This document shows, piece after piece, positions 28,278-56,742 of a DNA stretch of 64,000 nt (within the stretch, counting starts at the first letter, position 1; every line of letters begins with the position of its first letter). The stretch lies in NCBI GenBank assembly GCA_020632075.1, contig JACKGH010000001.1, forward strand, positions 537,778 to 601,777, written 5' to 3'. Below the pieces are notes generated by a model that was given only the letters and a program-made list of their open reading frames with translations, did no database searches and was not told where the DNA came from. Both the position numbers and the translations under genes were made by a program. This DNA comes from Candidatus Nomurabacteria bacterium. GTDB taxonomy: Bacteria > Patescibacteriota > Minisyncoccia > Phycocordibacterales > UBA918.

Positions 28278-29018
28278 CTATCGCTTCTTCCCCCACACCG
28301 CCACGGCTGGAAAAAGCTTCTCCTTCTGCCTGGTGTCTAGCCCAGCAAATTCAGGCTGATGTTTCATCTCCCAGGCAAACAATTCATCGATCGCAGTAGA
28401 ACTCGTATCCCGCAGGAGTTTCTCGAGACTCTTATGATTCGGCATTTGGTGGTATGTGGTCTTGGTCGGTGTCACCTCGTTTTGCTCATACAATGCACGC
28501 ACTTCACTTTCGGGTACATAGCGCACAAACTGTCGCTGCGGCAAAATGCCTGGCACTGTGTTACCAAGAAATACATGCAATCGCTCCTTAAGTGTGTGCG
28601 GATACAAGGCATGCCCAAGGTCGTAGCGATGCATGAGCGTACCGCCGCTTTTGAGATACTTGGCACTCATAGCAATGAAGCGACCGAGCTCCTTGATGTG
28701 CTCTAGCGCACTAAGTGAAAACACCAGATCGAAAGACGCTTCAGCCTCATCAGGAATTGAGTCATATCCCAGCTTGAAGTGCAGTGTCGCATTACTGAGT
28801 CCTGCCAAGTTTTTCTTGGCCGCCTCGTACGAAGCCGGAATCGGCTCAACTCCGACGTACTGCAGATCTGGATACTTCTTCAAAATAGACGGCATGTATG
28901 CCGCAGTACCACACCCGAGATCCATCACTCGAGGCGCGCCGGCTTCGCCGGCGCGCCTGATCTCCTCCTCGATCACGTACTCGATGAATTGTTCTTTCAG
29001 CATTTTCATGTGAGACAT
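28278..29018 (-). CDS. Class I SAM-dependent methyltransferase
   Basis: Motif I VMDLGCGTAAY; post-I acidic residue; Methyltransf_11/12-like FDLVFSLSALEHI. Confidence 0.7.
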   Translation of the reverse strand: MSHMKMLKEQFIEYVIEEEIRRAGEAGAPRVMDLGCGTAAYMPSILKKYPDLQYVGVEPIPASYEAAKKNLAGLSNATLHFKLGYDSIPDEAEASFDLVFSLSALEHIKELGRFIAMSAKYLKSGGTLMHRYDLGHALYPHTLKERLHVFLGNTVPGILPQRQFVRYVPESEVRALYEQNEVTPTKTTYHQMPNHKSLEKLLRDTSSTAIDELFAWEMKHQPEFAGLDTRQKEKLFPAVAVWGKKR

Positions 29019-29037
29019 TGTAGCATTACTCGGTAGA

Positions 29038-29060
29038 GGGCGGCAGCTTCGCTGCCGCCC
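29038..29060 (-). terminator. GC-rich hairpin downstream of gene 29069..30175
   Basis: GGGCGGCAG cttcg CTGCCGCCC; weak T-tract. Confidence 0.4.
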
Positions 29061-29068
29061 TGAAAACC

Positions 29069-30175
29069 TTACTCTTCCGGATACATCACCTCGGTCAACT
29101 TTGCTTCATACGTATTTGCACACAGACAAACATAATATGTTGGGAAATTGATCGGGATCACACTCGTACCACTAGACAATTCAAGCCAACGCAAACCGTC
29201 ATCATCAGTCGCAATCGGTATCGCGACCTTCGTGCTCATTGGACCATCCGCCAGCTGTGGAGCAAACTTCTCCCCTCCTACTTCCACCGTTAACTCAGAT
29301 GGCTTGATGTCACCAATAAACAAACTTCGATTACTCTTTTGTGGGAGCTCGTTTTGAAATTCCTCAACAAATCGTATTGAGACGACACAGGTACCTTCTA
29401 CGCCAAATGGTAAAGGAAGTGTATCGTCAAAATACTTCTCTTCTCTGGTCACCACGATATCTTCTACTGGAAACTCATCAGTGCTCCAGCCTTGCTTTTC
29501 CAAAAGGTGCAATAGGTCAAATTCAAGCGCCTTTGTATCACAACCTTCGACATACTTCTCCATATCATACGGAGCAGGACTATCATACTTTTTGTGTGTC
29601 ACCTGTATCGAACCATCAGAGAAATTAAATACATAGATATCGACAGATTGTTCAGACGTGGCCGCTGTGTACGAAAAATCATGTATTTCACCAGAATCAT
29701 CCAGATACGTCCCTGCGAATGCATACTCAGTATCATCAAGACCCACTACAAACACCTCAAGTGTACGGCTGTATCCAGACAACCCAAACACTTTAATTTC
29801 TTTTAAATCTTCAGACACCTCTCGATACAGCACATCTTTCACTCGTAGCACTTCACCTGTTCGAGAATCTCGTCCGGCCGTAGAACGACCACCATTAACC
29901 ACAAACACATCAATACCAGCACCTTGTACCTCCGCTCGCAGCAACGGTATCAATGGGGATTCCTCTGGCGATTCTTCTTCAACAATCACTGTTGGAAGAG
30001 GTTCCATCTCTGGCACAATTGCTTCCGACATAAGAACGGTGTCTTCTAGGACCACCTGATCTTCTTCCCTCCCCAAACTAGAAAAGAGCAACACCACCGC
30101 GCTGCATACGACCAAAATACTTCCTAAAATAATGAAGAAATAGCTATTGTTCATAGAACGTATTGTATCACTCAA
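29069..30175 (-). CDS. Hypothetical protein with N-terminal signal-anchor TM, acidic extracytoplasmic domain
   Basis: MNNSYFFIILGSILVVCSAVVLLFSSL is a TM segment. No recognisable catalytic motif. Bounded by hairpin terminators. Confidence 0.4.
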   Translation of the reverse strand: MSDTIRSMNNSYFFIILGSILVVCSAVVLLFSSLGREEDQVVLEDTVLMSEAIVPEMEPLPTVIVEEESPEESPLIPLLRAEVQGAGIDVFVVNGGRSTAGRDSRTGEVLRVKDVLYREVSEDLKEIKVFGLSGYSRTLEVFVVGLDDTEYAFAGTYLDDSGEIHDFSYTAATSEQSVDIYVFNFSDGSIQVTHKKYDSPAPYDMEKYVEGCDTKALEFDLLHLLEKQGWSTDEFPVEDIVVTREEKYFDDTLPLPFGVEGTCVVSIRFVEEFQNELPQKSNRSLFIGDIKPSELTVEVGGEKFAPQLADGPMSTKVAIPIATDDDGLRWLELSSGTSVIPINFPTYYVCLCANTYEAKLTEVMYPEE

Positions 30176-30181
30176 GGTACG

Positions 30182-30212
30182 TAAAAAGCCGGCGCCTTCG
30201 GCGCCGGCTTTT
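30182..30212 (-). terminator. Rho-independent terminator downstream of gene 30231..32195
   Basis: aaaaaGCCGGCGCC ttcg GGCGCCGGC ttttt. Confidence 0.6.
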
Positions 30213-30230
30213 TACATCACCCTTCTTCAC

Positions 30231-32195
30231 CTACTCCACCTGTGCCGACAACTTATCAAGCACTGAAAGTAGTATCGGACTATCAACCTTCTTTGCGATC
30301 AGCAACTTCCCGAAAGTCTCGATCGCCTGTAGCGCCTGCGACACGGTCTTGGCTTCCATTGCATCGAAGATCTTCGCTGCCCACTTCTCGAAAAATGCAC
30401 GCTGTTGTGATGTGAGATCATCACCAATGACCGCATCCATAATGATCAAGAACTGCTCATACGTGATCGATTCTTCAGCCACTCCACCCGAATCAAGATC
30501 AAATACAAATGTCGTACTCACCCCTGGGAATGTATATCCAGAGAAATGATAGGTCAGCATTTCCCCCTCGGCAGTTAGCACAAAAAATTCTACCTCGTAC
30601 TCACCGAGTCCAGTGCCGATCACTTCAATACTGAATGAATCTTCAGTCCCTGGCACCAGCAGGTGTTTCCCAGTACCACCAGCACCTACTAGTGAGATAA
30701 CTCCCTCTTCTGCGTACCAAGCGCCAGCGAGATCAACGATCGTATCTCCGTCGACATACCCCACCACTTCATCAGACGTGTTTCGGTACAACAATTCTGC
30801 AGTGCCGGAAAGATACGCCTCTACTCCATTTCCCAGCAGCACTGGTTCGTCATGTACGGTAAAGATACGGGCATCATCAAACGTATTGTCGTAATTTCGG
30901 ACATACTCAGAATCACTTTCTACGACATCATCAGCTGTCTCAGTCAGGTACCAAACTGGATCGTTGAGCAAATACCCATCTACAGTCTTCTCGGTCACCC
31001 AGACAAAGTGTCCACTATCAAACCCAAGCACGATTCTATCTTCCTCCTCAAGCGCAGCTGCCACGTCTCCCATGTCTGAAGTGAATTCAGGTGTACTGAA
31101 ACGCGACGTGATCTGACCACCGACAACCTCTCCAAGATACGCCTGTGCAGCCAGCCACACCACCGAACCATTACTGGTGTATCCGCCAACCTCATCTAGA
31201 TATTCATTGATGTTCTTTGGATTCACATCACCATGCGCAACATCCTCTTCGATACCTGCGTATCTACCTGCCATGACCAGTGAGGTGATAGCACAGCCAC
31301 AATCAGCGATTGTCAGACCACATGGATATGTTCCAGTCTGCCCCGCACCATTTGCATACACTTCATTAGCCCAGCTTGCGGTCTCAGACACCGAAGGATT
31401 GTCGGAAATAATCTGCGTGTACAGTGGATACTCAGACACCGGCTCTGGCTCGTATTCGTAGGTAACTTCTAGGTACGGATCGGTACTGGTGCCCGAGGCT
31501 TCTGACCCTGCGAAATAAACCCATGATTCGCCCCAAGTGCCTGTGTAAACATTCTTTACTGTTTCTACATTCTCAATGTCGTGTCCTTCGCGCAAACAGA
31601 GCTTGGTAAAACCTGAATCTGAAATCCAATCCAAGCCAGTAGAGTTTAAGTCTATGACCACATATTCACCTTCAGGCAAATAGGTAAGATCAAAGTCATC
31701 AGATCCTTTAGAAGGATTTGTAATTGCATTTCCACAATTATCAATATCTGAATTCACGATTTCAAATGGCGACGCTTGTCTTCCTTCGAATACAGAAAAA
31801 TAAGCGTACTCATCATTAAACTCATCTTTAACAGACTGTATGTACAGATTCAGATTCGCACTTAGGATTTCTGCACCATCAGGAATCTCAGAGGTATCAA
31901 ACACAGTAAATGCTCTAACTATACCGAGATAATCTGTAGGGGTGTAAAATGATCCTGACTTGAAGTAGATTGTTTCATCAGTATAGTCCGCAGCCCTTCC
32001 CACCACATCGTCGTGCTGATTATCCCAAGTTCCAGGATATGGAGAAGTTTTAACATCCCCATCCCCTTCACTTCCGTAAATCCTCACCGTCTTTACCTCA
32101 GCAAAAGCGCTGTGTGTACTGAACAGAAAAGTTAATAAAAATAACAACACTCCGAGGTATACACCTGGAGTCTTTGATACGTTGCACATCAACAT
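30231..32195 (-). CDS. Secreted hypothetical protein (signal peptide) with a possible papain-fold/C39-like cysteine motif
   Basis: Signal peptide ...LLFLLTFLFSTHSAFAEV. Motif YPCGLTIADCGCAITSLVMAGRYAG resembles the Q..DCG.ACL catalytic-Cys region of peptidase C39-like domains (weak). Confidence 0.4.
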   Translation of the reverse strand: MLMCNVSKTPGVYLGVLLFLLTFLFSTHSAFAEVKTVRIYGSEGDGDVKTSPYPGTWDNQHDDVVGRAADYTDETIYFKSGSFYTPTDYLGIVRAFTVFDTSEIPDGAEILSANLNLYIQSVKDEFNDEYAYFSVFEGRQASPFEIVNSDIDNCGNAITNPSKGSDDFDLTYLPEGEYVVIDLNSTGLDWISDSGFTKLCLREGHDIENVETVKNVYTGTWGESWVYFAGSEASGTSTDPYLEVTYEYEPEPVSEYPLYTQIISDNPSVSETASWANEVYANGAGQTGTYPCGLTIADCGCAITSLVMAGRYAGIEEDVAHGDVNPKNINEYLDEVGGYTSNGSVVWLAAQAYLGEVVGGQITSRFSTPEFTSDMGDVAAALEEEDRIVLGFDSGHFVWVTEKTVDGYLLNDPVWYLTETADDVVESDSEYVRNYDNTFDDARIFTVHDEPVLLGNGVEAYLSGTAELLYRNTSDEVVGYVDGDTIVDLAGAWYAEEGVISLVGAGGTGKHLLVPGTEDSFSIEVIGTGLGEYEVEFFVLTAEGEMLTYHFSGYTFPGVSTTFVFDLDSGGVAEESITYEQFLIIMDAVIGDDLTSQQRAFFEKWAAKIFDAMEAKTVSQALQAIETFGKLLIAKKVDSPILLSVLDKLSAQVE

Positions 32196-32329: not shown

Positions 32330-33043
32330 ATGATTAAGAAACTCTTGAAAACTCTGATTCATCCAAAATATCAGTTTAAACTCGTGAGTCTAAAACACTC
32401 CTTCACACACTTTCGACAGACATACTATTCACAAAACGGCGAAGACATAATGCTCCGTTCACTTTTTGCGCCTGACCATAGAGGCTTTTATGTTGATGTC
32501 GGCGCACACCACCCATACCGAATTTCAAATACGTATCTTCTTTTCAAACGCGGTTGGCACGGCATCAATATCGACCCCAACCCCGACACGATAGCCCTCT
32601 TCAAAAAGGCTCGGCCACACGATACCAATGTACAGTTGGGTGTCAGCAAAACCGCAGGAACCCTAACCTACCATCAGTTTGCTGACCCAGCGGTGAATAC
32701 CTTTTCTGATACAGAGGCAGAGCACTGGAAGAAAAAAACTTGGAATCAGTATCTGGGTACCACAACGGTTGAAACGAAGCCTCTGAAGAATATCCTTTCA
32801 GAACACGCACCTCCCAACCAAACCATAGACATGCTCTCAGTTGATGTTGAAGGGCTCGACCTAGAAGTACTGCAATCGAATGACTGGAACCAATTCAAAC
32901 CCACTGTGGTTGTAGTAGAGGCACATGACTTTGAGATCGAACACATGCAAGACCACCCACTGTACCAATACCTACACGGTCAAGGATACTCACTGAAATT
33001 CGTTGTAAAGTTTTCTCTTATCTTTGTACTGAAAACTGGTTAA
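32330..33043 (+). CDS. FkbM-family methyltransferase
   Basis: YSQNGEDIMLRSLF...GFYVDVGAHHPYRISNTYLLFKRGWHGINIDPNP...MLSVDVEGLDLEVL matches the FkbM (TIGR01444) pattern. Confidence 0.65.
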   Translation: MIKKLLKTLIHPKYQFKLVSLKHSFTHFRQTYYSQNGEDIMLRSLFAPDHRGFYVDVGAHHPYRISNTYLLFKRGWHGINIDPNPDTIALFKKARPHDTNVQLGVSKTAGTLTYHQFADPAVNTFSDTEAEHWKKKTWNQYLGTTTVETKPLKNILSEHAPPNQTIDMLSVDVEGLDLEVLQSNDWNQFKPTVVVVEAHDFEIEHMQDHPLYQYLHGQGYSLKFVVKFSLIFVLKTG

Positions 33044-33059: not shown

Positions 33060-34313
33060 ATGCTCAATAAGATTGAAACATTCCTGAGTGATAAATTTAA
33101 ATTTGACGCAAAGTACACACTCCGCGGTGGTTTTTGGTTGCTCTTTGGACACCTATTTACTATTTTAGCTGTACTAAGCACCTCATACGCCTTTGCTAAC
33201 TATCTCGATCCGCTGGTATACGGTAATTATAGATATCTTGTCACTGGGTCGGTGATAATCTCACTCTTTTCACTATCAGGACTCGGTAGCGCAATTACAC
33301 AAGCGACAGCAAAAAATTTGCTCGGGTTCTTCGGTCAGGCCATCCAACTCAGTACAAAATACGGTCTTATCACATCTGTAGTTGGCCTCATTGGTGCAGC
33401 CTATTATTTCTTCAATGGAAACGAACTGCTAGCAATCGGAATGGTGCTGATCGCCATCTTTCAACCATTCATTAACACAACAACACTCATCTTCCCATAC
33501 TTTTTTGGGAAACAGCAATTCAACGTCAGCACCCACTGGCACGCATTCAAAACACTTGTCACTACGGTTAGTATTGTCTCCGCCACACTCTTCACTGACA
33601 GTGTGCTGATCATCTTTTTATCATTCCTGTTAAGTAACTTACTCGCAAATACCGTCGTCTATCACCTAAACAAACCAAAGAAAGAGGATATCATTGATAA
33701 AGAAACAAGTGAAAGGTTCATTAGCTACGCCAAGCACACCAGCTACCAAAACATACTACTCGGTTTCGCTGGACAACTTGATAAAATTCTCGTCTTTCAA
33801 TTTCTCGGCGCAAAAGAATTAGCCATCTACGCCTTTGCCACTGCCCTACCTGACCAATACAAAGGGATCACGAAAACTATTGACTCCTTAATACTTCCGC
33901 GTTTCTCAAATCGAAAGTTAAATTCTATAAGGAGTACTATTCTGCATAAATCATTGATCTATTTTTCTTTTTTGGCAGTCTGTGCATTGGCATACTACTT
34001 AGCAGCACCACTGATCTTTGCTGTATTGTACCCCAGCTATTCCGAATCAGTTCTCCTGTCCCAAATATATGTTTTAGGGATAATGACGGGAATAGGCAGC
34101 ATTCCCATCAACGCTCTAAAGGCACAACTCAAAAACCGACTACTCTACAAATTTCAAGTGACGAGTGCTATATTTCAAATTTCATCACTGCTACTACTCT
34201 TACCTTTTTATGGAATGATTGGTTTAGTCACAGCACGTGTAGTACACAGAATCTTTGTCTGTGTGATTTCGTACGCACTTTTCTTCCACACAACACGACA
34301 AACTACTTGTTGA
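33060..34313 (+). CDS. Polysaccharide/oligosaccharide flippase (Wzx/MOP superfamily-like), ~12 TM
   Basis: 417-aa polytopic membrane protein with the two-half architecture typical of Wzx/MATE-like flippases; sits in the glycan cluster. Confidence 0.5.
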   Translation: MLNKIETFLSDKFKFDAKYTLRGGFWLLFGHLFTILAVLSTSYAFANYLDPLVYGNYRYLVTGSVIISLFSLSGLGSAITQATAKNLLGFFGQAIQLSTKYGLITSVVGLIGAAYYFFNGNELLAIGMVLIAIFQPFINTTTLIFPYFFGKQQFNVSTHWHAFKTLVTTVSIVSATLFTDSVLIIFLSFLLSNLLANTVVYHLNKPKKEDIIDKETSERFISYAKHTSYQNILLGFAGQLDKILVFQFLGAKELAIYAFATALPDQYKGITKTIDSLILPRFSNRKLNSIRSTILHKSLIYFSFLAVCALAYYLAAPLIFAVLYPSYSESVLLSQIYVLGIMTGIGSIPINALKAQLKNRLLYKFQVTSAIFQISSLLLLLPFYGMIGLVTARVVHRIFVCVISYALFFHTTRQTTC

Positions 34314-35013
34314 GCTCAATTTTCTTACTTACCTCTTGATGGTATTCAGGAGACTCCTCAGAAACTCTCTCAATGTCTTCTTCTTCTGACACGCCAACTT
34401 GCACCTCCAAAATAACAAGTTCTTTATCATCTGGTGCTTGTGGGGCGTGCCAAACACCAGGCAAATTCATACGAACCTCACCGTTTGGCATAAAAAAGAA
34501 TTCACTCCTTCGCTCGTGCCTTTGGAGAGACAGTTTTTTTCCAGCAGCGATATGCAACATCTTTACCTTCAATTGTGGCATATCTATCAGTACATCATAC
34601 CAACCCCACCTGGTAGATACTTTCTTGCGCGCATTTATCTCAGAACTCGAATTGTATTTGCCTCCCCCAAGCTCAAAAATTGGCTGTATGCCTAATTCTG
34701 TACAAACAACTAACTCGGGCGTATTACTGCTTTTCCTATCTCCTCCATTACCGAAATAATCAGGCTTAATCCTTTTGAGAGACTCGCATACTGTCCCATC
34801 ACTATCATCAACAGTATGAATGTATGGTGTATATGCCTCCAATATCTTTTTTCTGTCTATCCAGGGCTGAAAAAAGAACCCCTTTTTCCTAACTAGCCAA
34901 TCATCACTATTTAAAACGATATGTACCTCGCCGTATTCTGAAGCAGATTCTATCATTGCAATATGACCAGGATGGATTGGATCAAATCCACCAGAGATAA
35001 CAATTTTCTTCAT
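34303..35013 (-). CDS. Cytidylyl/adenylyltransferase-like (GxFDxxHxGH) domain fused to a C-terminal cupin domain
   Basis: MKKIVISGGFDPIHPGHIAMIESASEYGEVHIVLNSDDWL (nucleotidyltransferase superfamily). C-terminal WGWYDVL...LSLQRHERRSEFFFMPNGEV...LEVQVG is a cupin barrel. Confidence 0.55.
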   Translation of the reverse strand: MKKIVISGGFDPIHPGHIAMIESASEYGEVHIVLNSDDWLVRKKGFFFQPWIDRKKILEAYTPYIHTVDDSDGTVCESLKRIKPDYFGNGGDRKSSNTPELVVCTELGIQPIFELGGGKYNSSSEINARKKVSTRWGWYDVLIDMPQLKVKMLHIAAGKKLSLQRHERRSEFFFMPNGEVRMNLPGVWHAPQAPDDKELVILEVQVGVSEEEDIERVSEESPEYHQEVSKKIELNK

Positions 35014-35019
35014 ACCTTA

Positions 35020-35685
35020 CTAAGGATTTCTTTTTGTCACTTTTGCAAAACTGATTTCTAATCGACCAAAATCTGGGTTGTTAAAACTATCTATTTCTGG
35101 AAGAACCTCGACTATATATTTGGTTTGATCAATTGCATCGACCACCGGCTTAGCAGACTCTGCTGGCCTGTTTCTCCAATAGTCATCAAAAATAACTACG
35201 GTTTTGTCATGCATAAGTTTTTCTACCGCAGCCCAGTCGTTGCTTATAGTAGCCACGTGGTGTCCGCCATCAATAAATACGAAATCTACCTTTTCTGTTC
35301 CATCGGCAAACTCTGTCAAGGTTTTGTTTGTATCACCCTTGATCAGAAGTATTTCTGCCCCGCTCTTTAGCAACTTCTCTTGAACCTCGTTTTTTGTAGG
35401 CGGCTTTTTCGACAGCTCCTGAACATACAACTCCTCCGTTAAATCTTCAAAGAGGTCAAAACCTATGTATTTAATACTACCAGGCGAATTTTCCTTTGCC
35501 GTCTTTATCATCTCAAGTGCTCGATTACCGTTCCAAGTACCGATCTCAAGTATAGTCTGAGCTTTACTCCGTGCAATTTCATCAAACAAGTGATGATACC
35601 TCTTAGGAGCTTTAAATACTCTATGGTGCCAGTTCATTACTGGCACATAGAAGGGGCGAAGAATTTTTTTTATGATCTCAACCAT
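35020..35685 (-). CDS. Class I SAM-dependent methyltransferase (CmcI/TylF-like O-methyltransferase family)
   Basis: ILEIGTWNGNRALEM...KVDFVFIDGGHHVATISNDWAAV...VVIFDDY matches the Methyltransf_24-like pattern. An A8 tract lies in codons 5-8. Confidence 0.55.
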   Translation of the reverse strand: MVEIIKKILRPFYVPVMNWHHRVFKAPKRYHHLFDEIARSKAQTILEIGTWNGNRALEMIKTAKENSPGSIKYIGFDLFEDLTEELYVQELSKKPPTKNEVQEKLLKSGAEILLIKGDTNKTLTEFADGTEKVDFVFIDGGHHVATISNDWAAVEKLMHDKTVVIFDDYWRNRPAESAKPVVDAIDQTKYIVEVLPEIDSFNNPDFGRLEISFAKVTKRNP

Positions 35686-35688
35686 AAA

Positions 35689-36804: not shown

Positions 36805-36818
36805 TATCTTTCTCTTGA

Positions 36819-37208: not shown

Positions 37209-37219
37209 AATTTTCTAAA

Positions 37220-39471: not shown

Positions 39472-39571
39472 ACAATATGGATATACCTGTAACAACTTAT
39501 CTGATTTGTAGTTACAGTATTATAACGTTTATTGAAAATATCACCATTCGAGGGAAAAACGATCACACTTT

Positions 39572-43319: not shown

Positions 43320-43339
43320 AGATCATTTATAACCTAAAA

Positions 43340-46127: not shown

Positions 46128-46163
46128 AGCATTTGAAACGAAGTAACGTGGCCCAAAGTCACA

Positions 46164-47051: not shown

Positions 47052-47077
47052 ACCATCTCGCTCATACCCTGGCGAAC

Positions 47078-48421: not shown

Positions 48422-48448
48422 TACCGCTAGTATAGCAGGCTGTGCGCT

Positions 48449-49564: not shown

Positions 49565-50679
49565 GAGGCCATTTCTTTTAACATCACCACAATATCTGCA
49601 ACGATCCGTTCTTTTGCAAACTCCTTTGAGCGACCGCGAGCAGACTGCACCAAACGCTCGCGCGATTCAGGATGATGCAACACCCGTGCGATCGATTCGG
49701 TCAATGCATCAGTATCATTAAATGGCACCAAGTACCCATTCACTCCATCGGTAATTAGTTCTGGATTACCACCCGCAACAGTAGTCACAATCGGCGTTCC
49801 AATGTCCATCACTTCAATCAACTGATGTGACAATCCTTCGTACGCGGTATTTAGCACAAACACATCCGCTGCCTTGATCATAGCGCCAAGCGTGTCTTTG
49901 CTGACACTACCGGTGAACCACACGTTACGGCTTAGCTTACGCTCAGCCACCTTTGCTTCCAAGACCTCCTTCTCTGGGCCGTCACCCACAATAATCAGCG
50001 TCACTTGCGGGAACTGTTCTTTCAACGCAGCAACGACATCAATAAGCGCACTGAAACCTTTCCATGGCACGAGTCGCCCTGCCGATACGATTGTGGGGTA
50101 TGGATACTCAAGCTCTTCTCGAAGCTGCTGACGAGGTGTAGTGACTGTCAGTGGATAGAGAGCGCTATAGATCACCTGGATTTTCTCTTCGGGGATACCC
50201 CACTTTACAACCATACGTTTCAGATACTTACTCGGCACGATGACTCGGCGCGCGTGAGAAACCACGTGCGTCTGCACTTTTGCCAGGAGTCTCACTGGCC
50301 GTGGCCAGTCACTAGCATCATCGAGATGATCGTCAAGGATCTTGGTTACTCCAAATCGAACCCGTCCCTGCTCCCACGCATAATCACCACCCAGTCTTAC
50401 CAAAAATGGCAACCGGCGAAGCTTCGAAACCCAGAGCGCCGGCAGTCCCACACTAACCGGATCAAGCGCGTAGATCAGATCAGACTGATGACTCGCGCAC
50501 CACAACTTCCAGAGGTAGACCATGTGTCGCAACACCTTCGGATACTTCCGCACCCAACCAAACGGAACTACCGTTACTTCGATATCATGAGCTGGTAGCT
50601 CTTGCTCAAGCATGGTGGCATACGTCGCCGGACCACCAATCTCCGGCGGATACAAGCCCGTCGCAATCGTTACTTTCAT
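49561..50679 (-). CDS. Glycosyltransferase family 4
   Basis: SAGRLVPWKGFSALID...LNTAYEGLSHQLIEVMDIGTPIVTT. Confidence 0.75.
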   Translation of the reverse strand: MKVTIATGLYPPEIGGPATYATMLEQELPAHDIEVTVVPFGWVRKYPKVLRHMVYLWKLWCASHQSDLIYALDPVSVGLPALWVSKLRRLPFLVRLGGDYAWEQGRVRFGVTKILDDHLDDASDWPRPVRLLAKVQTHVVSHARRVIVPSKYLKRMVVKWGIPEEKIQVIYSALYPLTVTTPRQQLREELEYPYPTIVSAGRLVPWKGFSALIDVVAALKEQFPQVTLIIVGDGPEKEVLEAKVAERKLSRNVWFTGSVSKDTLGAMIKAADVFVLNTAYEGLSHQLIEVMDIGTPIVTTVAGGNPELITDGVNGYLVPFNDTDALTESIARVLHHPESRERLVQSARGRSKEFAKERIVADIVVMLKEMAS

Positions 50680-51206
50680 AGTTTCTCTATAATACCATCG
50701 ACGTCAGCCAGTGTGTGAACGACGTGAATCCCGCGAACTGAGTCAACATTGCCGATCTGTTCTGGATCACGAACCATGAGACATACGATCGCTTGCGGCA
50801 CTGCAGACTGTACCGAAAGACACTGTTCAATCTTATCGTCGACAAAAACGATGGTTTCGTCTGGCGGAAATTGCTTGGCAATGGACGCCGCATCGACTCC
50901 CTTATCACCCTCAGAAAAAATGATATCCGAAACCATGTCACCCAATTTACTGCAGCGCAGCTTTTCTTTTTGATACTCCATAACAGTCTTGCCGTCACTA
51001 GTCATCGCAGCGGTAAGAATAAACAGGTCGTCTTTTGATTTCTGTCGCAGCCAATCAAGCGTATCTATATGCAAGTACGTACGCACGTCATAGTGCTGCC
51101 AGATCTCGGGTGTAAATAAAAGTGAGCCAGCACCATCTCGAGCTACGAGCTCCTTAAAAGACTTGGCGTCGTACAATGTGTCATCAAAATCTAAAATGTA
51201 TTTCAT
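50676..51206 (-). CDS. HAD-superfamily hydrolase (phosphatase-like)
   Basis: N-terminal MKYILDFDDTLYD matches HAD motif I (DxDxT); ~176 aa. Confidence 0.5.
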   Translation of the reverse strand: MKYILDFDDTLYDAKSFKELVARDGAGSLLFTPEIWQHYDVRTYLHIDTLDWLRQKSKDDLFILTAAMTSDGKTVMEYQKEKLRCSKLGDMVSDIIFSEGDKGVDAASIAKQFPPDETIVFVDDKIEQCLSVQSAVPQAIVCLMVRDPEQIGNVDSVRGIHVVHTLADVDGIIEKL

Positions 51207-52204
51207 AACAACCCAATTAACTTACGTGCCAACTTCCGTGAATCATGACGAATCAAGCTTCGTTTCAATGTATCCCCACCGCTCTTTTGCACTACTTCCT
51301 CGCCAAGCAGATCAGCCGGTACAACTCGACAGTCGTTTGATTCGCAATTAAATGCTACCGGATATTCCCCATCGTCTGCGTACCGACCAAGGAGCTCTTC
51401 GGGTAACGGTGCAGTATTTACGATCACCGCGTCAGGCATGCGACCTACGTAGCGACTGATCTCTGCGACATGCTCGGATACTCCCATGCCGGTGGTTTGC
51501 CCATGCTTGGTCATAAGGTTTGAAACATATACCACCTGCGCGGTTGTGTTCTGGATTGCTTCCGCAACCCCATCAACCACGCAATTGGCCAGCACACTGG
51601 TATAGAGGTCACCTGGACCAAGTACGACTAAATCAGCATTAAGAATTGCTGCCTCCGCAGCTTCACTCACCACCGCGCGCGGTGTCACCGACAGCGACAC
51701 TATTGAATGCTCAGCCCTGTCTTTGGTCGGTTCATCAATACCATGTTCACCAACCAACTCAACACCATCATCGTACGTTGCAACTAAGTTCACTTTCTCT
51801 GTCGTCACCGGGATCACGCTACCCTGGACATTGAGCAACTTCGACGCGGCCCGAATCGCTGCCGCTTCTGAGCCAAGAATATCAGTAAGCGCGACAAGGA
51901 GCAGGTTGCCGAAGTTGTGTCCCGACAGCCCATTACCTTTTTCAAACCGATACAAGAAAAGTTCTCGCACCAATTCCTCGTGCTCGTCGACATCACTCGC
52001 GAGCGCTGCGAGCGCCATACGCACGTCGCCCACCGGCAAGTAGCCAAACTCGTCACGCAATCGACCTGTCGAGCCGCCAGAGTCTGCCATGGTCACGATC
52101 GCTGCGACGTCGATCTGTTTTTGATACAACTTGAGCCCACGAAGTACCGTGTGTGTCCCCGTCCCGCCGCCAATAACCACCACACTGTGCTTTTTCATTA
52201 CCAA
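51203..52204 (-). CDS. yvcK: YvcK/CofD-like (UPF0052, gluconeogenesis factor / UDP-GlcNAc-binding family)
   Basis: VVVIGGGTGTHTVLRGLK...VTMADSGGSTGRLR matches the YvcK/CofD N-terminal signature. Confidence 0.8.
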   Translation of the reverse strand: MVMKKHSVVVIGGGTGTHTVLRGLKLYQKQIDVAAIVTMADSGGSTGRLRDEFGYLPVGDVRMALAALASDVDEHEELVRELFLYRFEKGNGLSGHNFGNLLLVALTDILGSEAAAIRAASKLLNVQGSVIPVTTEKVNLVATYDDGVELVGEHGIDEPTKDRAEHSIVSLSVTPRAVVSEAAEAAILNADLVVLGPGDLYTSVLANCVVDGVAEAIQNTTAQVVYVSNLMTKHGQTTGMGVSEHVAEISRYVGRMPDAVIVNTAPLPEELLGRYADDGEYPVAFNCESNDCRVVPADLLGEEVVQKSGGDTLKRSLIRHDSRKLARKLIGLL

Positions 52205-52236
52205 AATATAACAAGGTTATGCAGCAATTTGTTTCT

Positions 52237-53454
52237 TTACTTCTTCGCAAAGAGTGGCTTAAATACTTTGGTATCTATATCTGCTGCCACTATGTCCCAG
52301 TCGTACTGAGTGATCGCCATATCCTTGGCTCGAGCTACTACTTCTGCCACTTTCTCCGGTCGATTTACAATGTCTTCAACTGCAGTTTTGATCTGTTCTG
52401 GACTGTCTACATCTACCGCCCAGCCGGTTGTACCCTGATCAGGATTACGTATTTCATCAAATAAGAAATCGGCGATACCTCCCTCTTGCGTCGCAATGAC
52501 CGGCAACTCTGCCGCCATCGCCTCCACAAACGAATTACCCATCCCTTCCGAACGCGATGGTCGAATGAAGATATTGCACGCTTTGAGGTATTTCGGCATC
52601 ACGGAGTGATCGATGTGACCGCGAAGCAAGACTCGGTCTGACACTCCTAGTTCAGTCGCTAATCTCTGTAATTTTTGCTCATCTGGCCCTGTACCAAACA
52701 CCACAAACTTCACCTGCTCGGGCAGCAGGGCAATTGCCTTGATAACGTCATCAAGAGCATTTTTATGCACTAGACGCGAGGTAGTCACCAGCAAGACATC
52801 GTCGTCTTGGACAGCTAGCTCCCGGCGCACTTCACGCAACTCATCACTACTGTACTGCTGCGTGAAGTGCGCCGTGTTAACTGCATTTGGCACCAACACC
52901 GGCTCCCCCGCAAACCCCTTCTGCTTTGCCCAGTTACCAAGAAACGTCGAGATCACTTGCACCGCATCAGCCAGTACGAAGGCATCGGTAAATGCCTGCC
53001 CAAATGGTTTCATTTTTTTCTCAATGTGTTCCGGCGGGTCTCCTTCTTGCAAAGTCAGCACATACTGCGCATCCGGGAATACCTTCTTAAACTTCCCTGC
53101 TGGCACGCCAGTAGCATGCGCCATCAGCGCCCAGATAGCGTCGAACTTTTCTTCCTTGTGTAGCTTCTTCGCCTGCCAATACGCAGTCCACTGATAAAAG
53201 ATCTTGTTGAGGTGTAGTGGCAACTTTCGCAAATCCGCGACTGTCGGTTTGTGCGTCGTAAGTCCTATCCGATGCACGGTCACATTACCGATCTGCTCGC
53301 GCTTCGGAAATGTTGAGTCATATCGATTACACAACAAATGAAACTCATACTCATCTGTCGAAAGACGATCCGTGATCTCTTTGATCGCAGTTTCAGCCCC
53401 ACCCACCTTAACTGGGTAGTACACCAGCGAAAAAATCAGGATCTTCTTTTTCAT
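52237..53454 (-). CDS. Glycosyltransferase family 4
   Basis: MKKKILIFSLVYYPVKVGGAETAIKEITDRL (Glyco_trans_4-like N-terminus); C-terminal ...SRSEGMGNSFVEAMAAELPVIAT. Confidence 0.7.
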   Translation of the reverse strand: MKKKILIFSLVYYPVKVGGAETAIKEITDRLSTDEYEFHLLCNRYDSTFPKREQIGNVTVHRIGLTTHKPTVADLRKLPLHLNKIFYQWTAYWQAKKLHKEEKFDAIWALMAHATGVPAGKFKKVFPDAQYVLTLQEGDPPEHIEKKMKPFGQAFTDAFVLADAVQVISTFLGNWAKQKGFAGEPVLVPNAVNTAHFTQQYSSDELREVRRELAVQDDDVLLVTTSRLVHKNALDDVIKAIALLPEQVKFVVFGTGPDEQKLQRLATELGVSDRVLLRGHIDHSVMPKYLKACNIFIRPSRSEGMGNSFVEAMAAELPVIATQEGGIADFLFDEIRNPDQGTTGWAVDVDSPEQIKTAVEDIVNRPEKVAEVVARAKDMAITQYDWDIVAADIDTKVFKPLFAKK

Positions 53455-53462
53455 ACGGCACG

Positions 53463-54278
53463 TTACTTTTTCTTCACTGTCAGAATCAGGTGACCAGCAA
53501 ATTGCTGGTGCCATGCTTTCTTATTGAGTCGCTCATCAAAGCGCTCGAGTCGATGCGCAAACCATTCCCCTACCCCTGGTGAGATCTTGTAGAGGATACG
53601 TAGTGGCGCGAACATGGCTGATGCCGTCTCTGCGTCTTGGTCAAAGTTTTTCTTGAAGTACGCTCGCATACCTGCTGGTGTCACTGAGTCACAGTAGTTA
53701 ATGATCTCTTTACCGAACACCTTCTCCATTAGAAGTTTAGATTGATATGAAAACTGAAACGCATCGAGTGCGTACCGATTCACGAGTGTCACCACCATGA
53801 TCCCCCCTGGCTTCAGTACACGGAGAATCTCTTCGTATGCCTTCTTGATATCAGCTGCCTCAAGATAGCGAAACAGTTCGATCGAAACTACCGCATCAAA
53901 CGAATTGTCCGGAAATGGTAGCTCGGTCGCGATCCCTTCAATTACTTTTACATTTGGATTCTTCGCTTGCGCTCGTTCCCTCATTCCCTTGGCTGGCTCA
54001 AGACCAGTCATTGTGTAGCCCTTTTCAGAGAGATGATTTAGATAGTACCCGGTACCACACGCCACCTCAAGCACCTCGCCGGTGCCATGTAAATGCTCAT
54101 CAAAAATTGCATCCATCTTCTCAAACAATTTCTTTCGACCATAGGCAAAGGCGCTCGCATATGGATTTTCATCTAATACAGTGTATCGATCATAAAAGAC
54201 CGGTGAGTTCATATCATGTGACTGCACCGCCTTCTTTCGATATTTTAATGTCTTTTCGTTCGCTGATTCATTACTCAT
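53463..54278 (-). CDS. Class I SAM-dependent methyltransferase
   Basis: VLEVACGTGYYLNHL motif I; ...LKPGGIMVVT. Confidence 0.7.
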   Translation of the reverse strand: MSNESANEKTLKYRKKAVQSHDMNSPVFYDRYTVLDENPYASAFAYGRKKLFEKMDAIFDEHLHGTGEVLEVACGTGYYLNHLSEKGYTMTGLEPAKGMRERAQAKNPNVKVIEGIATELPFPDNSFDAVVSIELFRYLEAADIKKAYEEILRVLKPGGIMVVTLVNRYALDAFQFSYQSKLLMEKVFGKEIINYCDSVTPAGMRAYFKKNFDQDAETASAMFAPLRILYKISPGVGEWFAHRLERFDERLNKKAWHQQFAGHLILTVKKK

Positions 54279-54288
54279 AGTGGTACTA

Positions 54289-55251
54289 CTATACTACAGT
54301 TTTACACTCATCGGCGATCATTCCCATGGTCGTCACTCGCAAGACACCTTCCTCTCGCAAAGAAGCTGCATACTGTAACGCATCTTCGAGTATGTTAAGT
54401 TGCGTCGCTGTATCATACGAGAAGTTTGAAGGATGAAACCACAGATGGAAGATCTCTTGCCGATCGGCTGCAGCTTTGATACCGCGTCTGATCTTTCGTT
54501 TCATCATAGACGGTGTCACGAGCTTGCGGAAACCATTGCGGCCAAGGAGGAGTAAACTGTCAGGAATATTGATCAGTCCCGACTCGTGTCTGCTTGGCGT
54601 GACGGTCCGCACACCAGGCAACATGTAGTCAAACAGGCGCGCCAGTCGACCGAGCGGGCCAGGCAGCTTCATGTACCAGAAAGTACTCAATCCTCGGTAG
54701 CACTGGACACCGATCTCGCGCAACTCTTTATGATAGCCTTCCATGTTGCGCGGAAAGATAAACGAAGCGAGCGGTAGACCATAGCGTTTATGAATCCGTG
54801 CTATGCCTGCTATATCAGCTGCGATCGCTTCAGGCTTGATGGTGGGTGCACCATACAAAATATGCGCATACGAATGACTACCGATCTCTTGCGGCACCAC
54901 TGACTGTTGCACAGCTTTGATCACACCAGCGCTATCGAACCACAGCGGATCTGCCGTGTCGCCCGCCGGCGGATGATGGGCAAACCAATCAAGACTACTA
55001 TCGGTGAAAATCTGTGCCGGAAATTCGGCATGCACTCGCCCATCATCCGCCGGCGAACAATCGGTCTCGAGCAAATGCCCCACGATCGCCCACGTTGCCG
55101 AGATGTCGTATTTTTCAAACAGCTTCAAGATCTCTCGTGACACTGCCGCTTCTTCTCGCACCAATTGCCTCCGCTCCACACTCAGCATCTCATCGGCATA
55201 CCCAAGTGCGTACTCAAAATCTATGCTGATGGTAAGCGTCCCTTTTTTCAT
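54289..55251 (-). CDS. Polysaccharide deacetylase (CE4/NodB-like) family protein
   Basis: N-terminal TISIDFE.. then DISATWAIVGHL; later IGSHSYAHI (H-S-x-x-H-like motif). Tentative. Confidence 0.45.
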   Translation of the reverse strand: MKKGTLTISIDFEYALGYADEMLSVERRQLVREEAAVSREILKLFEKYDISATWAIVGHLLETDCSPADDGRVHAEFPAQIFTDSSLDWFAHHPPAGDTADPLWFDSAGVIKAVQQSVVPQEIGSHSYAHILYGAPTIKPEAIAADIAGIARIHKRYGLPLASFIFPRNMEGYHKELREIGVQCYRGLSTFWYMKLPGPLGRLARLFDYMLPGVRTVTPSRHESGLINIPDSLLLLGRNGFRKLVTPSMMKRKIRRGIKAAADRQEIFHLWFHPSNFSYDTATQLNILEDALQYAASLREEGVLRVTTMGMIADECKTVV

Positions 55252-55254
55252 AGG

Positions 55255-56742
55255 CTACGAATTATTCCCTTTCTTTTGCAAACGTTGATTTAAGAAATTG
55301 GCATACGCAAAGCGGACTTGGTTCGCAAACGCATCACCCGAACCGATCGACTTAATGAGCGCGGTACGCTTGCTGAGCGAGATAGCTGCCTGCGCTTCGT
55401 ACGTATCCATGGCATAGACCTGGTCAGCAGTACCGAGAACGCGTTTCAGAATAAACCGGGTGTACCACGAAATGTTCGCGATCTTTTGATCAGCCAGTGT
55501 GATCAAAAGTGGGACCTTATGCTTCCTTCCTCCGAGAATTGCTGCTAAAGCTCCATAGCTCGCAAAGAGCGCCCACTGGAACAAATACGAATGTTCCTTG
55601 CGTAGTCGACGTCCTACCTTGGCACCCAAAAATGGCAACAGGTATTTGTCGAGTTTATAGCCATACCCCACTCGATGGAGCGTGACATTTGGAATTTCGC
55701 ACTCATCCCCCATAGTGTCTTTACTGAACTTTGTCGTCACCACATCAAACTGCACGTTCGGCATTGAGCGGATCAAGTCGCACAGTGCATGCTCGGCAGC
55801 GCCGGCATGCGGGAAGAACGTGGTCGAAAAGACTAACACTCGTTGCTCTGCTTTTTGCACCTGACCGATCTCGGCCTTCACCTGTTTGATCCAGTCAGTA
55901 AGGGTGTGATTTTGCTTCCAGCCGAGCGCTTTAACCTGTACATTATCGACTCCTGCAGTCATCCGGTTTCCTTTTCGCTCTGGCATCATTACCACTTCCC
56001 CGCCAAACATATTCGCCACATCAAGCACTGAGTATTGCTGATCAGCACCGATACCATAGCCGTCACCCTTGCCATGCTTTGCAGTGAGAATGAGCCCATC
56101 GACAATATCGTACACATGGGTGTAGTTTCGTGTCTGCGTGCCAGGCGCGGTCACCGTAAGTGGCTGACCATTACGGTACAGTTCAGTGAAAATCCGGATG
56201 AGTGTACCGTACGATCCAGACATCTCCCGTGGACCATAGACATTATAAAAATACGTAATCGCGTACTCGACTCCAAACCAGTCAGCATAGTTTTTCACCA
56301 GTTCGGTATTGGTCGCCTTGGTCCAGGCGTACGGACTCTGATCTCGCCCATCACCCGCATCAGCAAACTTGGTTGATGAACCAGCGTACACCACCTTACA
56401 ATCACGGCGGCGACAAAATTCCATCACGGCAAACGTGCCGGTCTTGTTGAGATCCCACACCAGCTCCACATCTTCAAAGCTTTTCTCTGTACGAGCATAC
56501 TCCCCAAGATGAAAGACAATGTCTGGTGTTTCAGAAATATGTTGTGCAATATCCTTCGTGTGACCAGTCCGATACGCAACCCCTTCGACATGATTGTCGG
56601 GAGTGCCGGTAAAATAGTTATCAAGCGAAATAACCGCGTACCCTTCCTTGATCAATCGCTCACACAGATGCGAACCAACAAATCCTGCTCCTCCCGTGAC
56701 GACCGCTAGCTGCTGTTTTTCCATAGTGTCTAATAGTACCAA
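55255..56742 (-). CDS. Fusion: N-terminal NAD-dependent epimerase/dehydratase (UDP-glucuronate decarboxylase/UXS-like) + C-terminal glycosyltransferase-N-domain-like region
   Basis: VVTGGAGFVGSHLCERLIKEGYAVISLDNYFTGTPDNH (UXS-like); YAWTK (YxxxK); ~180 aa extra C-terminus. Start may be at MEKQQ (56724). Confidence 0.6.
   Translation of the reverse strand: MVLLDTMEKQQLAVVTGGAGFVGSHLCERLIKEGYAVISLDNYFTGTPDNHVEGVAYRTGHTKDIAQHISETPDIVFHLGEYARTEKSFEDVELVWDLNKTGTFAVMEFCRRRDCKVVYAGSSTKFADAGDGRDQSPYAWTKATNTELVKNYADWFGVEYAITYFYNVYGPREMSGSYGTLIRIFTELYRNGQPLTVTAPGTQTRNYTHVYDIVDGLILTAKHGKGDGYGIGADQQYSVLDVANMFGGEVVMMPERKGNRMTAGVDNVQVKALGWKQNHTLTDWIKQVKAEIGQVQKAEQRVLVFSTTFFPHAGAAEHALCDLIRSMPNVQFDVVTTKFSKDTMGDECEIPNVTLHRVGYGYKLDKYLLPFLGAKVGRRLRKEHSYLFQWALFASYGALAAILGGRKHKVPLLITLADQKIANISWYTRFILKRVLGTADQVYAMDTYEAQAAISLSKRTALIKSIGSGDAFANQVRFAYANFLNQRLQKKGNNS

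Follow-up and report, generated by a model that had tools for sequence, protein, structure and literature searches.

We analysed a 64-kb stretch of the genome of a Candidatus Nomurabacteria bacterium (64,000 nt of contig JACKGH010000001.1, assembly GCA_020632075.1; the window in what follows), in which positions 28,278-56,742 carry a dense array of genes for glycosyltransferases (GTs), methyltransferases and nucleotide-sugar enzymes. This is a genuine large cell-surface glycan gene region of a Nomurabacteria-like bacterium of the candidate phyla radiation (CPR, Patescibacteria). All open reading frames (ORFs) named in an earlier description of the window, which was made without database searches (the sequence-only reading), are present at their positions, and the gene families agree with its view of the region as one of glycan biosynthesis. 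The region makes up ∼2.8% of the ∼1-Mb genome to which we infer it belongs (28.5 kb of 1,004,653 bp). The cupin and the 595-aa protein described below are 100% identical to NCBI proteins of Candidatus Nomurabacteria bacterium (locus tag H6786_02765). SecA of the window is 82% identical to SecA of a Patescibacteria metagenome-assembled genome, and the same strain is also present on short contigs of four sequencing runs (SRR14234111, SRR14234113, SRR14234114 and SRR15882951). Scans of the window with Rfam and for tRNAs detected no RNA genes. Families were called with the cut-offs of Pfam and NCBIfam, and for the folds AlphaFold2 (AF2) models were searched with Foldseek against the PDB. Genes lie on the minus strand unless stated otherwise.

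The sequence-only reading had described a single ∼28-kb locus. We observed a composite of three parts, which differ in their GC content at third codon positions (GC3) and in their synteny. The first part, 45,120-56,742, has native GC content (GC3 0.42-0.55, like the rest of the window). Every gene of the window from 45,120 to 63,780 has its counterpart, in the same order, on a 651-kb Kaiserbacteria-labelled contig (L093) at protein identities of 41-81%. The shared order is DUF4015, YkuD-S11, TrwB-like, LTD-PKD, a short-chain dehydrogenase/reductase (SDR) fused to a GT4 N-terminal-like domain, CE4-like, methyltransferase, GT4, YvcK, a 176-aa protein, three GT4s, methyltransferase and GT4; the stretch at 45.1-56.7 kb is a lineage-conserved block. 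The second part is marked by low GC3 (0.28-0.45 at 33,060-45,127) and forms a separate, horizontally exchangeable variable island of about 32.3-45.1 kb, which contains the Gmd cassette described below. The third part, 28,278-32,195, holds one methyltransferase and two secreted proteins; it has no counterpart in the loci of relatives and was assigned to neither of the other two.

The sequence-only reading had also predicted an unusually hydrophobic, multiply O- and C-methylated glycan from its nine GTs and seven methyltransferases, which we take to mean that one co-regulated 28-kb unit makes a single glycan. Nearly all genes do lie on the same strand with tiny gaps (from 56,742 down to 40,349 the intergenic distances are ≤55 bp, or the genes overlap, which is operon-like), and all gene families are compatible with glycan assembly. 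However, the block and the island have different GC3 values and different evolutionary histories, relatives pair the same block with quite different islands, the housekeeping regulator YvcK lies in the middle of the region, and two secreted proteins of non-glycan families occupy 28.3-32.2 kb. The tight array moreover continues into non-glycan genes, so that spacing alone cannot define a functional unit. We consider a single unit quite unlikely.

The cassette in the island consists of an SDR, Gmd, a C-methyltransferase, a cupin, a GT4, a Methyltransf_24 enzyme, in some genomes a nucleotidyltransferase-cupin fusion, and Wzx, where the SDR and Wzx are encoded on the opposite strand. The core of Gmd, C-methyltransferase, cupin and SDR around which the sequence-only reading had organised the region is real and recurs as a conserved unit: order and orientation are kept beside Wzy_C-TPR, MurB and SecA in five related loci (L005, L087, L090, L091 and L092), with identities of 75-87% for Gmd, 58-72% for the C-methyltransferase and 62-77% for the cupin. 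In the complete 721-kb genome CP174359.1 the whole island measures ∼14 kb and is bounded by yvcK and wzy_C.

The gene at 38,476-39,495 is assigned at equivalog level as a GDP-mannose 4,6-dehydratase (TIGR01472, 492.8 bits against a cut-off of 415; PF16363, 462 bits). For this family the conversion of GDP-mannose to GDP-4-keto-6-deoxy-D-mannose is established chemistry. The neighbouring gene at 37,220-38,479 encodes a methyltransferase with an N-terminal Zn ribbon of four cysteines (C16, C19, C59 and C62; Methyltransf_13, PF08421, 68.4 bits against a cut-off of 31.3), a central Rossmann domain (PF13489, 65 bits) and a C-terminal Methyltransf_14 domain (PF08484, 184 bits). In the PDB search it matched MtmC (4rv9) over residues 11-418 with E 2.4e-92, and KijD1 and TcaB9 with E ∼1e-69; the matches are full length. 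Judged by its architecture it is a TylCIII/MtmC/TcaB9-type C-methyltransferase of nucleoside diphosphate (NDP)-4-keto-hexoses, and by homology methylation would take place alpha to the 4-keto group, with C-3 as the likeliest site. MtmC is the D-mycarose 3-C-methyltransferase, and the characterised relatives are, as far as is known, all enzymes that act next to a 4-keto group. The genes for Gmd and the C-methyltransferase overlap by 4 nt; from this overlap and from the adjacency of Gmd in six related loci we infer that the methyltransferase is specific for GDP sugars.

The third gene of the core, at 39,572-40,306 on the plus strand, encodes a classical SDR (adh_short, 117 bits) and is transcribed divergently from gmd. 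Its position and divergent orientation beside gmd are kept in at least 10 loci at identities of only 26-45%, and because of this conserved context it is the cassette's candidate ketoreductase. We tested whether a GMER-type epimerase-reductase might be present: the only reductase of the cassette is the classical SDR, and the extended SDR at 55,255 is GalE/UXS-like and forms part of the conserved block. The core is read most economically as a route from GDP-mannose to a branched C-methyl 6-deoxyhexose.

The remaining member of the core is a mini-cupin of 129 aa (36,819-37,208; Cupin_1/2), which the sequence-only reading had called FdtA/WxcM-like. Its AF2 model has a mean predicted local distance difference test score (pLDDT) of 95.7. 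The best Foldseek matches in the PDB are the 3,4-ketoisomerases QdtA, FdtD, FdtA, HCAN_0198 and WlaRB, which have the same size and template modelling (TM) scores of 0.72-0.76. For QdtA (4zu7) we obtained E 7.8e-9 with TM scores of 0.75 normalised to the query (TMq) and 0.72 normalised to the target (TMt), and for FdtA (2pa7) a TMq of 0.72. The epimerases ChmJ, StrM, EvaD and WbcA follow close behind; for the first three TMq is also ∼0.7, but TMt is only ∼0.48, as about half of those proteins is covered. Over its full length the cupin profile aligns with QdtA, an RmlC-like protein, the cupin domain of CapF and FdtA at E 6e-6 to 5e-5. The family label was not confirmed at the same level, since the cupin reaches only 15.2 bits (E 0.018) with the Pfam FdtA family PF05523, below the cut-off of 23. 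A homologue with 48% identity (P0042) passes PF05523 with 27.5 bits and fails PF00908 (17.3 bits against a cut-off of 27). PF00908 itself, which covers the RmlC/EvaD-type enzymes of ∼170-200 aa, gave no match in the window cupin, and the CapF-type cupin family PF14667 also matches members of the mini-cupin family. By its modelled fold the cupin is FdtA/QdtA-like, which does not yet make it a member of the ketoisomerase family.

Ten residues of the cupin are invariant: D17, R19, G20, R44, H47, H49, Q54, H94, R112 and E118 (for H47 and H49 across 24 + 24 sequences). In the profile alignment of residues 12-114 with residues 13-121 of FdtA, which runs at near-identical numbering, the H47-x-H49 pair may correspond to the catalytic His49/His51 of FdtA. 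The profile core also resembles the Mn-cupins OxdC and Sll1358 (E ∼1e-16), over residues 32-101 only. As these two are the best matches of the sequence profile, we considered an oxalate-decarboxylase-type enzyme and rejected it: the OxdC/Sll1358 matches are confined to the metal-motif core, while the full-length fold, the N-terminal D-x-R-G and the genomic context favour the NDP-sugar cupins.

The genomic context of the cupin is distinctive. Scanning a genome collection for the C-methyltransferase we detected 80 loci. In 27 of the 34 loci with a C-methyltransferase at least 45% identical to that of the window the cupin lies directly downstream, compared to only 1 of the 46 loci below this identity. 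Taxonomically these loci come from the Patescibacteria, DPANN archaea, Nitrospirae, Acidobacteriota and further groups, and in one Pacearchaeota locus the C-methyltransferase and the cupin form a single reading frame. Among 1.84 billion representatives the cupin profile found at least 453 clusters (at the 50% identity level) with E ≤ 1e-10. Of the multidomain members we checked ten, and every one carries a methyltransferase: a TylCIII-type C-methyltransferase in seven (with the domains in either order), an FkbM enzyme in one and a class I methyltransferase in two. Aminotransferases, acyltransferases and SDRs do not occur as fusion partners among the ten. The fusions come from CPR bacteria and DPANN archaea. 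Examples of cupin-methyltransferase fusions are found in L038 (1983-3758) and in the proteins P0217, P0247, P0298, P0347, P0238, P0253 and P0355. Because of the gene adjacency and these repeated fusions, a coupling of the mini-cupin to methyl transfer is the best-supported functional statement that we can make about it.

Which reaction is coupled can be graded. For an epimerase that acts on the methylated 4-keto sugar we see even odds. This is the order of events in the mycarose-type pathways (TylC3/TylK/TylC2; EryBIII/EryBVII), which combine a C-3 methyltransferase, a 5-epimerase cupin and a 4-ketoreductase. The sequence-only reading had quoted the mycarose logic with a 3,4-ketoisomerase in place of the 5-epimerase, and this needs correction, as no such isomerase is known to take part in the sugar pathways of tylosin, erythromycin and chloroeremomycin. 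Methylation at C-3 makes this carbon quaternary and closes it to a 3,4-ketoisomerase, which has to act beforehand. A ketoisomerase that works ahead of the methyltransferase, with a non-canonical branch position as the consequence, is the less likely option, though one with an appreciable chance, and some other activity of the cupin accounts for the rest. Spelled out as a pathway, a true 3,4-ketoisomerase working ahead of the methyltransferase would give GDP-3-keto-6-deoxyhexose, the methyl branch would end up on C-2 or C-4, and C-3 would be left for the SDR to reduce. Such regiochemistry is not known for the TylCIII-type family, and the characterised relatives of the methyltransferase, as noted, are all known as enzymes that act beside a 4-keto group. 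The structural and size matches to QdtA, FdtD, FdtA, HCAN_0198 and WlaRB, the invariant H47-x-H49 and the homologue that passes the FdtA cut-off speak for this pathway. Against these stand the low score of the cupin itself (15 bits, where FdtA requires 23), the nearly equal scores of ChmJ, StrM and EvaD and the PF14667 matches within the family. Another argument against it is that aminotransferases and N-acyltransferases, the usual users of 3-keto sugars, are found neither in the window nor in the cassettes of the relatives. We regard this pathway as unlikely. Still more doubtful is the boldest proposal, in which cupin and methyltransferase form an undescribed two-enzyme module for branched or methylated nucleotide sugars: the cupin, possibly metal-dependent, would move or invert the keto centre and so allow methylation at a non-canonical position, and ultrasmall episymbionts would attach to their hosts or escape phages largely by means of the resulting hyper-methylated, strain-variable glycan coat.

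Four further genes complete the cassette. Directly after the cupin lies a GT4 (35,689-36,804; Glycos_transf_1, 112 bits, and Glyco_transf_4), which follows the cupin in at least seven relatives and is the candidate transferase of the branched sugar. Next is the Methyltransf_24 class I methyltransferase (35,020-35,685; PF13578, 59 bits), for which neither the PDB nor NCBIfam returned a relative; it is 48-64% identical and in the same position in six relatives and is the candidate O-methyltransferase of the branched sugar. The gene at 34,303-35,013 encodes an HxGH-type nucleotidyltransferase fused to a cupin like that of type II phosphomannose isomerases (CTP_transf_like and MannoseP_isomer), for which the PDB search returned TagD and the cytidylyltransferase domain of Fom1. 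Its counterparts in L087, L090 and L091 share 71-82% identity with it, and our guess is that it supplies an activated sugar, by sugar-phosphate activation or an isomerase step. The last cassette gene is the Wzx-type flippase of the MOP/Polysacc_synt group (33,060-34,313, plus strand; PF01943/PF13440) with multiple hydrophobic segments, found in the same position and orientation in L005, L087, L090, L091 and L092.

Taken together we propose a two-part envelope glycan locus, in which the cassette yields a GDP-linked C-methylated 6-deoxy sugar and the product is exported by Wzx and Wzy_C; we give this model a probability of about 0.6. The conserved block (the SDR-GT4N fusion, the CE4-like protein, two class I methyltransferases, five GT4s, YvcK and the HAD-like protein) would probably build a backbone glycopolymer on a lipid carrier at the cytoplasmic face, to which the island would add strain-specific residues. 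Gmd would convert GDP-mannose to GDP-4-keto-6-deoxy-D-mannose, the TylCIII/MtmC-type enzyme would methylate it alpha to the 4-keto group (most likely at C-3, by homology), the cupin, whose fold is modelled, may epimerise or isomerise the keto sugar, and the classical SDR, as its context suggests, would reduce the keto group. The expected product is a GDP-6-deoxy-C-methylhexose, which the adjacent GT4 would transfer. The Methyltransf_24, FkbM and class I enzymes could then O-methylate the branched sugar or neighbouring sugars. Wzx would flip the lipid-linked unit and the Wzy_C-TPR protein may polymerise or ligate it outside the membrane; the priming transferase and the GDP-mannose supply would be encoded elsewhere in the genome.

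Several observations weigh against this model. The SDR at 39,572 is a generic classical SDR with generic PDB matches only and is not of a known NDP-sugar 4-ketoreductase type. Gmd lies within 10 kb in only 9 of the 34 loci with a C-methyltransferase of at least 45% identity, and because of this the pair of C-methyltransferase and cupin is not tied to GDP sugars in general. The non-C methyltransferases (five by our count) have no family-level substrate assignment in NCBIfam. Among the window ORFs scanned we found neither a priming transferase (PF02397, Bac_transf; PF00953, MraY/WecA), in agreement with the sequence-only reading, nor a chain-length regulator (Wzz/PCP, PF02706), ManB or ManC. The two priming families were likewise absent from the called genes of L087 and L090-L096. 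Finally, the tight co-directional array runs on into the non-glycan genes at 56,746-62,037 (LTD-PKD, TrwB-like and YkuD-S11).

At its high-coordinate end the conserved block carries an extended SDR of the GalE/UXS type (55,255-56,742; Epimerase, 135 bits; GalE/UXS matches in the PDB over residues 13-290) that is fused to a GT4 N-terminal-like domain. Residues ∼290-495 gave only a sub-threshold match to Glyco_trans_4_4 (E 6e-4). It is among the most conserved proteins of the region: over 120 database clusters, named as Paceibacteria, Kaiserbacteria or Nomurabacteria, share 70-88% identity with it across the whole ∼485-495 aa. No function is known for an SDR that carries the N-terminal Rossmann half of a GT-B enzyme and lacks the other half. 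It is followed by a putative CE4-like deacetylase (54,289-55,251; Polysacc_deac_1, E 2.4e-4; peptidoglycan deacetylase in the PDB, E 0.049; 72% identical in L093), a class I methyltransferase (53,463-54,278; Methyltransf_11; 78% identical in L093) and a GT4 (52,237-53,514; Pfam). This GT4 is called with 425 aa, compared to 405-408 aa in its homologues, and its gene overlaps the methyltransferase gene by 52 nt; because of the overlap and the shorter homologues its start codon is probably called ∼20 codons too far upstream. The YvcK/CofD-related UDP-GlcNAc-binding protein (51,203-52,204; TIGR01826, 296 bits against a cut-off of 196; 81% identical in L093) serves as a housekeeping anchor. Beside it, also in L093, lies a possibly HAD-like protein of 176 aa (50,676-51,206; Pfam Hydrolase, E 0.18; 68% identical) with a DxDxT-like 'DFDDT' seen by eye only. 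The CE4-like and HAD-like labels, both taken over from the sequence-only reading, are tentative, as their matches lie below cut-off.

The block continues with three GT4s called by Pfam, all syntenic in L093, at 49,561-50,679 (42% identical), 48,449-49,564 (52%) and 47,078-48,421 (66%). It ends with a second class I methyltransferase (46,164-47,051; Methyltransf_11; 76% identical and syntenic) and a short GT4 (45,120-46,127; Glycos_transf_1, 75 bits; 68% identical), which is the first gene of the block by coordinate.

Beyond the cassette the island contains a second GT4 (41,152-42,267; Glyco_trans_1_4 and Glycos_transf_1), two FkbM methyltransferases and a GT47 (exostosin)-like GT. One FkbM gene (40,349-41,155; PF05050; TIGR01444, 76.6 bits) has the lowest GC content of the locus (0.359), and the other (32,330-33,043, plus strand) matches PF05050 with 86 bits and TIGR01444 with 50 bits against a cut-off of 37.7. 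The GT47-like protein (42,273-43,319) matches PF03016 with 48.8 bits against a cut-off of 33.4, over the C-terminal part of the model only. The gene at 43,340-45,127 encodes a 595-aa protein of an uncharacterised family, without a signal peptide and with no sequence match in Pfam or the PDB. Its relatives are ∼600-aa hypotheticals in CPR and Altiarchaeota, and homologues occur in the equivalent loci L095 and L096, which lack the Gmd cassette. The AF2 model (pLDDT 93.7) resembles PL17, PL33, PL8 and PL15 lyases (TM ∼0.5), with an (alpha/alpha)-toroid and a beta-sandwich. As polysaccharide lyases and C5-epimerases share this fold, our best guess is an enzyme that modifies the polymer.

In total, seven GT4s (35,689, 41,152, 45,120, 47,078, 48,449, 49,561 and 52,237) and one GT47-like protein (42,273) pass the Pfam cut-offs, so that the GT total is eight plus the half-domain at 55,255. 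The sequence-only reading had counted eight GT4s, the exostosin-like GT and the fused domain; the exostosin-like GT was confirmed, the GT4 count is one too high and the fused domain remains sub-threshold. Pfam detected no GT signature in the products of 29,069, 30,231 and 43,340. As an eighth GT4 we considered 29,069 and rejected it, as it has no family match at E ≤ 1 and carries an N-terminal membrane segment. Apart from the CE4-like and HAD-like proteins, the other named enzymes and the upstream Wzy_C-TPR protein were all recovered by Pfam or NCBIfam.

The part at 28.3-32.2 kb starts with a class I S-adenosylmethionine-dependent methyltransferase (28,278-29,018; Methyltransf_12, E 1e-14, also Methyltransf_23 and Methyltransf_11; NCBIfam sub-threshold) with native GC3 (0.59), whose membership in the glycan pathway is uncertain. 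The 368-aa protein at 29,069-30,175 has no Pfam match at E ≤ 1 and a single N-terminal hydrophobic segment, and the 654-aa secreted or anchored protein at 30,231-32,195 has no Pfam family and an N-terminal signal-like segment. Both are absent from relatives and are probably not glycan enzymes. In the latter we noticed, by eye only, a 'CGCAITS ... GHFVWV' motif like that of papain/C39 cysteine peptidases.

All seven methyltransferases of the sequence-only reading (28,278, 32,330, 35,020, 37,220, 40,349, 46,164 and 53,463) were confirmed by the Pfam and NCBIfam searches. For the non-C methyltransferases, as for the GT4s, NCBIfam gave no equivalog-level name, and all matches were below cut-off; because of this, the heavily methylated, hydrophobic glycan is still a prediction from context. 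The best matches of 28,278, 46,164 and 53,463 are of the UbiE/UbiG/BioC/Mtf2 type, far below cut-off, and would fit methyltransferases that act on lipids, proteins or small molecules instead of sugars. In addition, two unrelated proteins lie between 28,278 and the GT genes, and the loci of relatives lack a counterpart of this methyltransferase. However, 46,164 and 53,463 keep their positions among the GT4 genes in L093, and the equivalent loci of relatives are consistently rich in methyltransferases. That several of the seven, in particular these three, do not act on sugars is very unlikely in our view.

The comparison with related genomes, which the sequence-only reading had recommended, also puts the number of methyltransferases into perspective. 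Around the cassette, or in its place, relatives carry different accessory genes. L090 carries a sulfotransferase, a 3'-phosphoadenosine 5'-phosphosulfate (PAPS) synthase, an AsnB-type amidotransferase and six methyltransferases in 20 kb, and L091 carries a GT2, GtrA and an FkbM enzyme; the methyltransferases of L091 number five. L095 and L096 have different islands altogether beside the same conserved block: in the former we found a UDP-GlcNAc 2-epimerase, PIG-L, an ATP-grasp protein and four methyltransferases in 18 kb, in the latter three methyltransferases, a sulfotransferase, a PAPS synthase and an AsnB-type amidotransferase. With 3-6 of them per 18-20 kb in sister loci, seven methyltransferases are not exceptional, contrary to the sequence-only reading. 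Between Wzx and Wzy_C-TPR relatives have a bifunctional ATP-sulfurylase/adenosine 5'-phosphosulfate (APS) kinase, with a sulfotransferase in the island (L087 14447-16090; L090 77-907 and 14334-15992; L096 4387-5220 and 14487-16145). Some relatives apparently sulfate the glycan where the strain of the window methylates it, and decoration with methyl (or sulfate) groups seems to be general in these loci and to vary among them. In L087, a 1.08-Mb relative, an rve-family transposase (4227-5153) borders the glycan island, which is consistent with island mobility.

The low-coordinate edge of the region is formed by a conserved anchor, the Wzy_C and TPR membrane protein at 25,938-28,163 (Wzy_C, 64.8 bits, and TPR families), with at least ∼10 hydrophobic segments. 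Homologues with 35-64% identity lie beside the cassette and MurB/SecA in L005, L034, L087, L090 and L092. The Wzy_C family (PF04932) also includes O-oligosaccharyltransferases (O-OTases) of the PglL type, and within Wzy_C polymerase, ligase and O-OTase are not separable by sequence. This opens the way to protein O-glycosylation, in which a PglL/PilO-like O-OTase would transfer a methylated oligosaccharide to surface proteins such as the giant beta-helix proteins, pilins or an S-layer. Such a role would fit the lack of a chain-length regulator among the window ORFs, the constancy of the Wzy_C-TPR gene while the glycan genes vary, and the presence of large N-terminally anchored surface proteins at 240-16,769 and of the LTD-PKD protein at 56,746. 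On the other hand, the giant proteins are set apart from the locus by GatB, Obg, SecA and MurB, and no acceptor was identified. We judge O-glycosylation to be improbable and prefer export of a polysaccharide by Wzx and Wzy_C.

The giant proteins themselves are three consecutive products of 937, 2164 and 2443 aa (240-16,769), each with an N-terminal hydrophobic segment. The 2443-aa protein contains five NosD/right-handed beta-helix stretches and the 2164-aa protein SGL/Kelch-type beta-propeller matches; a surface location is probable for all three. Immediately upstream of the glycan locus, at 56,746-63,780, lies a conserved block of genes for DUF4015, a YkuD L,D-transpeptidase/S11 D,D-carboxypeptidase fusion, a TrwB/VirD4-like ATPase (791 aa) and the LTD and PKD protein, which is hydrophobic at both ends. 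The same order is found in L093 (3496-9979) and L094 (3423-9948) at 46-80% identity. In the 513-bp gap between secA and murB a 74-aa ORF that consists almost wholly of Lys/Ala repeats (24,424-24,648; KKAVKKTAKK...) resembles basic proteins of the histone H1 or AlgP type, and relatives also have a small ORF there. Directly downstream of secA lies a 148-aa Phage_holin_4_2 protein with four transmembrane segments (21,332-21,778; 114 bits), with no other phage genes nearby.

The locus is of an ordinary kind with one uncharacterised enzyme pair. Few CPR bacteria have been brought into culture; they live in contact with other cells, to which they attach, and their surface chemistry is almost unstudied. 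Our literature search on CPR surface glycans, and on GDP-sugar C-methyltransferases beyond the Coxiella model, returned nothing relevant. The interest of the locus lies in this CPR context and in the cupin family and not in the number of methyltransferases: the repeated fusion of a widespread cupin family to methyltransferases predicts a coupled reaction. In other bacteria a conserved-plus-variable architecture marks glycans that serve as phage receptors or in host contact. Should the product simply be a 3-C-methyl-6-deoxyhexose made by the known logic, the result is a useful annotation and no surprise.

Among known systems the Wzx/Wzy-type bipartite surface-polysaccharide locus appears to be the closest analogue of the whole locus, with the difference that the window ORFs scanned include neither a priming transferase nor a chain-length regulator. 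A conserved part, a variable part of lower GC content and fixed flanks are typical of O-antigen, capsule and Gram-positive wall-polysaccharide loci, and the layout seen here would be of this type. With Lactococcus cwps and Streptococcus rgp and with O-antigen and capsule loci it also shares the Wzx and Wzy_C-type proteins. Unlike cwps and rgp it has no RmlABCD rhamnan module and no priming transferase in the locus, belongs to a CPR genome of ∼1 Mb and would be decorated by methylation (by sulfation in relatives).

For the cupin, the 3,4-ketoisomerases FdtA, QdtA and FdtD (WxcM) share the fold (TM 0.72-0.76) and the single cupin domain of ∼130 aa, and the window cupin has N-terminal D-x-R-G and H-x-H motifs. 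In contrast to these enzymes the conserved partner of the window cupin is a methyltransferase and not an aminotransferase or N-acyltransferase, the score is below the Pfam FdtA cut-off, and the additional invariant residues Q54 and H94 align with metal ligands of the OxdC type. The actinomycete pathways to dTDP-L-mycarose, eremosamine and kijanose, in which C-3 methyltransferases (TylC3, MtmC, TcaB9 and KijD1) work with TylK/EvaD 5-epimerases and 4-ketoreductases, have the same methyltransferase architecture (Zn ribbon, Rossmann and Methyltransf_14) and would have in common with the cassette the succession of methyltransferase, cupin and reductase on an NDP-4-keto-6-deoxy sugar. Here, however, the nucleotide is probably GDP and not dTDP, there is no 2,3-dehydratase or 3-ketoreductase, the destination would be a surface glycan and not an antibiotic, and the cupin is ∼60 residues shorter than the RmlC/EvaD-type epimerases and nearer to FdtA/QdtA.

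The closest described analogue of the sugar module would be the GDP-virenose route of Coxiella burnetii. For the virenose (6-deoxy-3-C-methylgulose) of its lipopolysaccharide an in silico GDP route was proposed with Gmd (CBU_0689), a TylCIII-like enzyme (CBU_0691) and a GMER-like enzyme (CBU_0688) (PMC3539893). In both cases Gmd adjoins a TylCIII-type C-methyltransferase in a surface-glycan locus, and a GDP-linked 3-C-methyl-6-deoxyhexose would result. The two differ in the host, which is Gram-negative there and a monoderm-like CPR bacterium here, and in the last step: in Coxiella it is assigned to an extended SDR of the GMER/GDP-fucose-synthase type, whereas the window has the 129-aa cupin and a classical SDR in its place.

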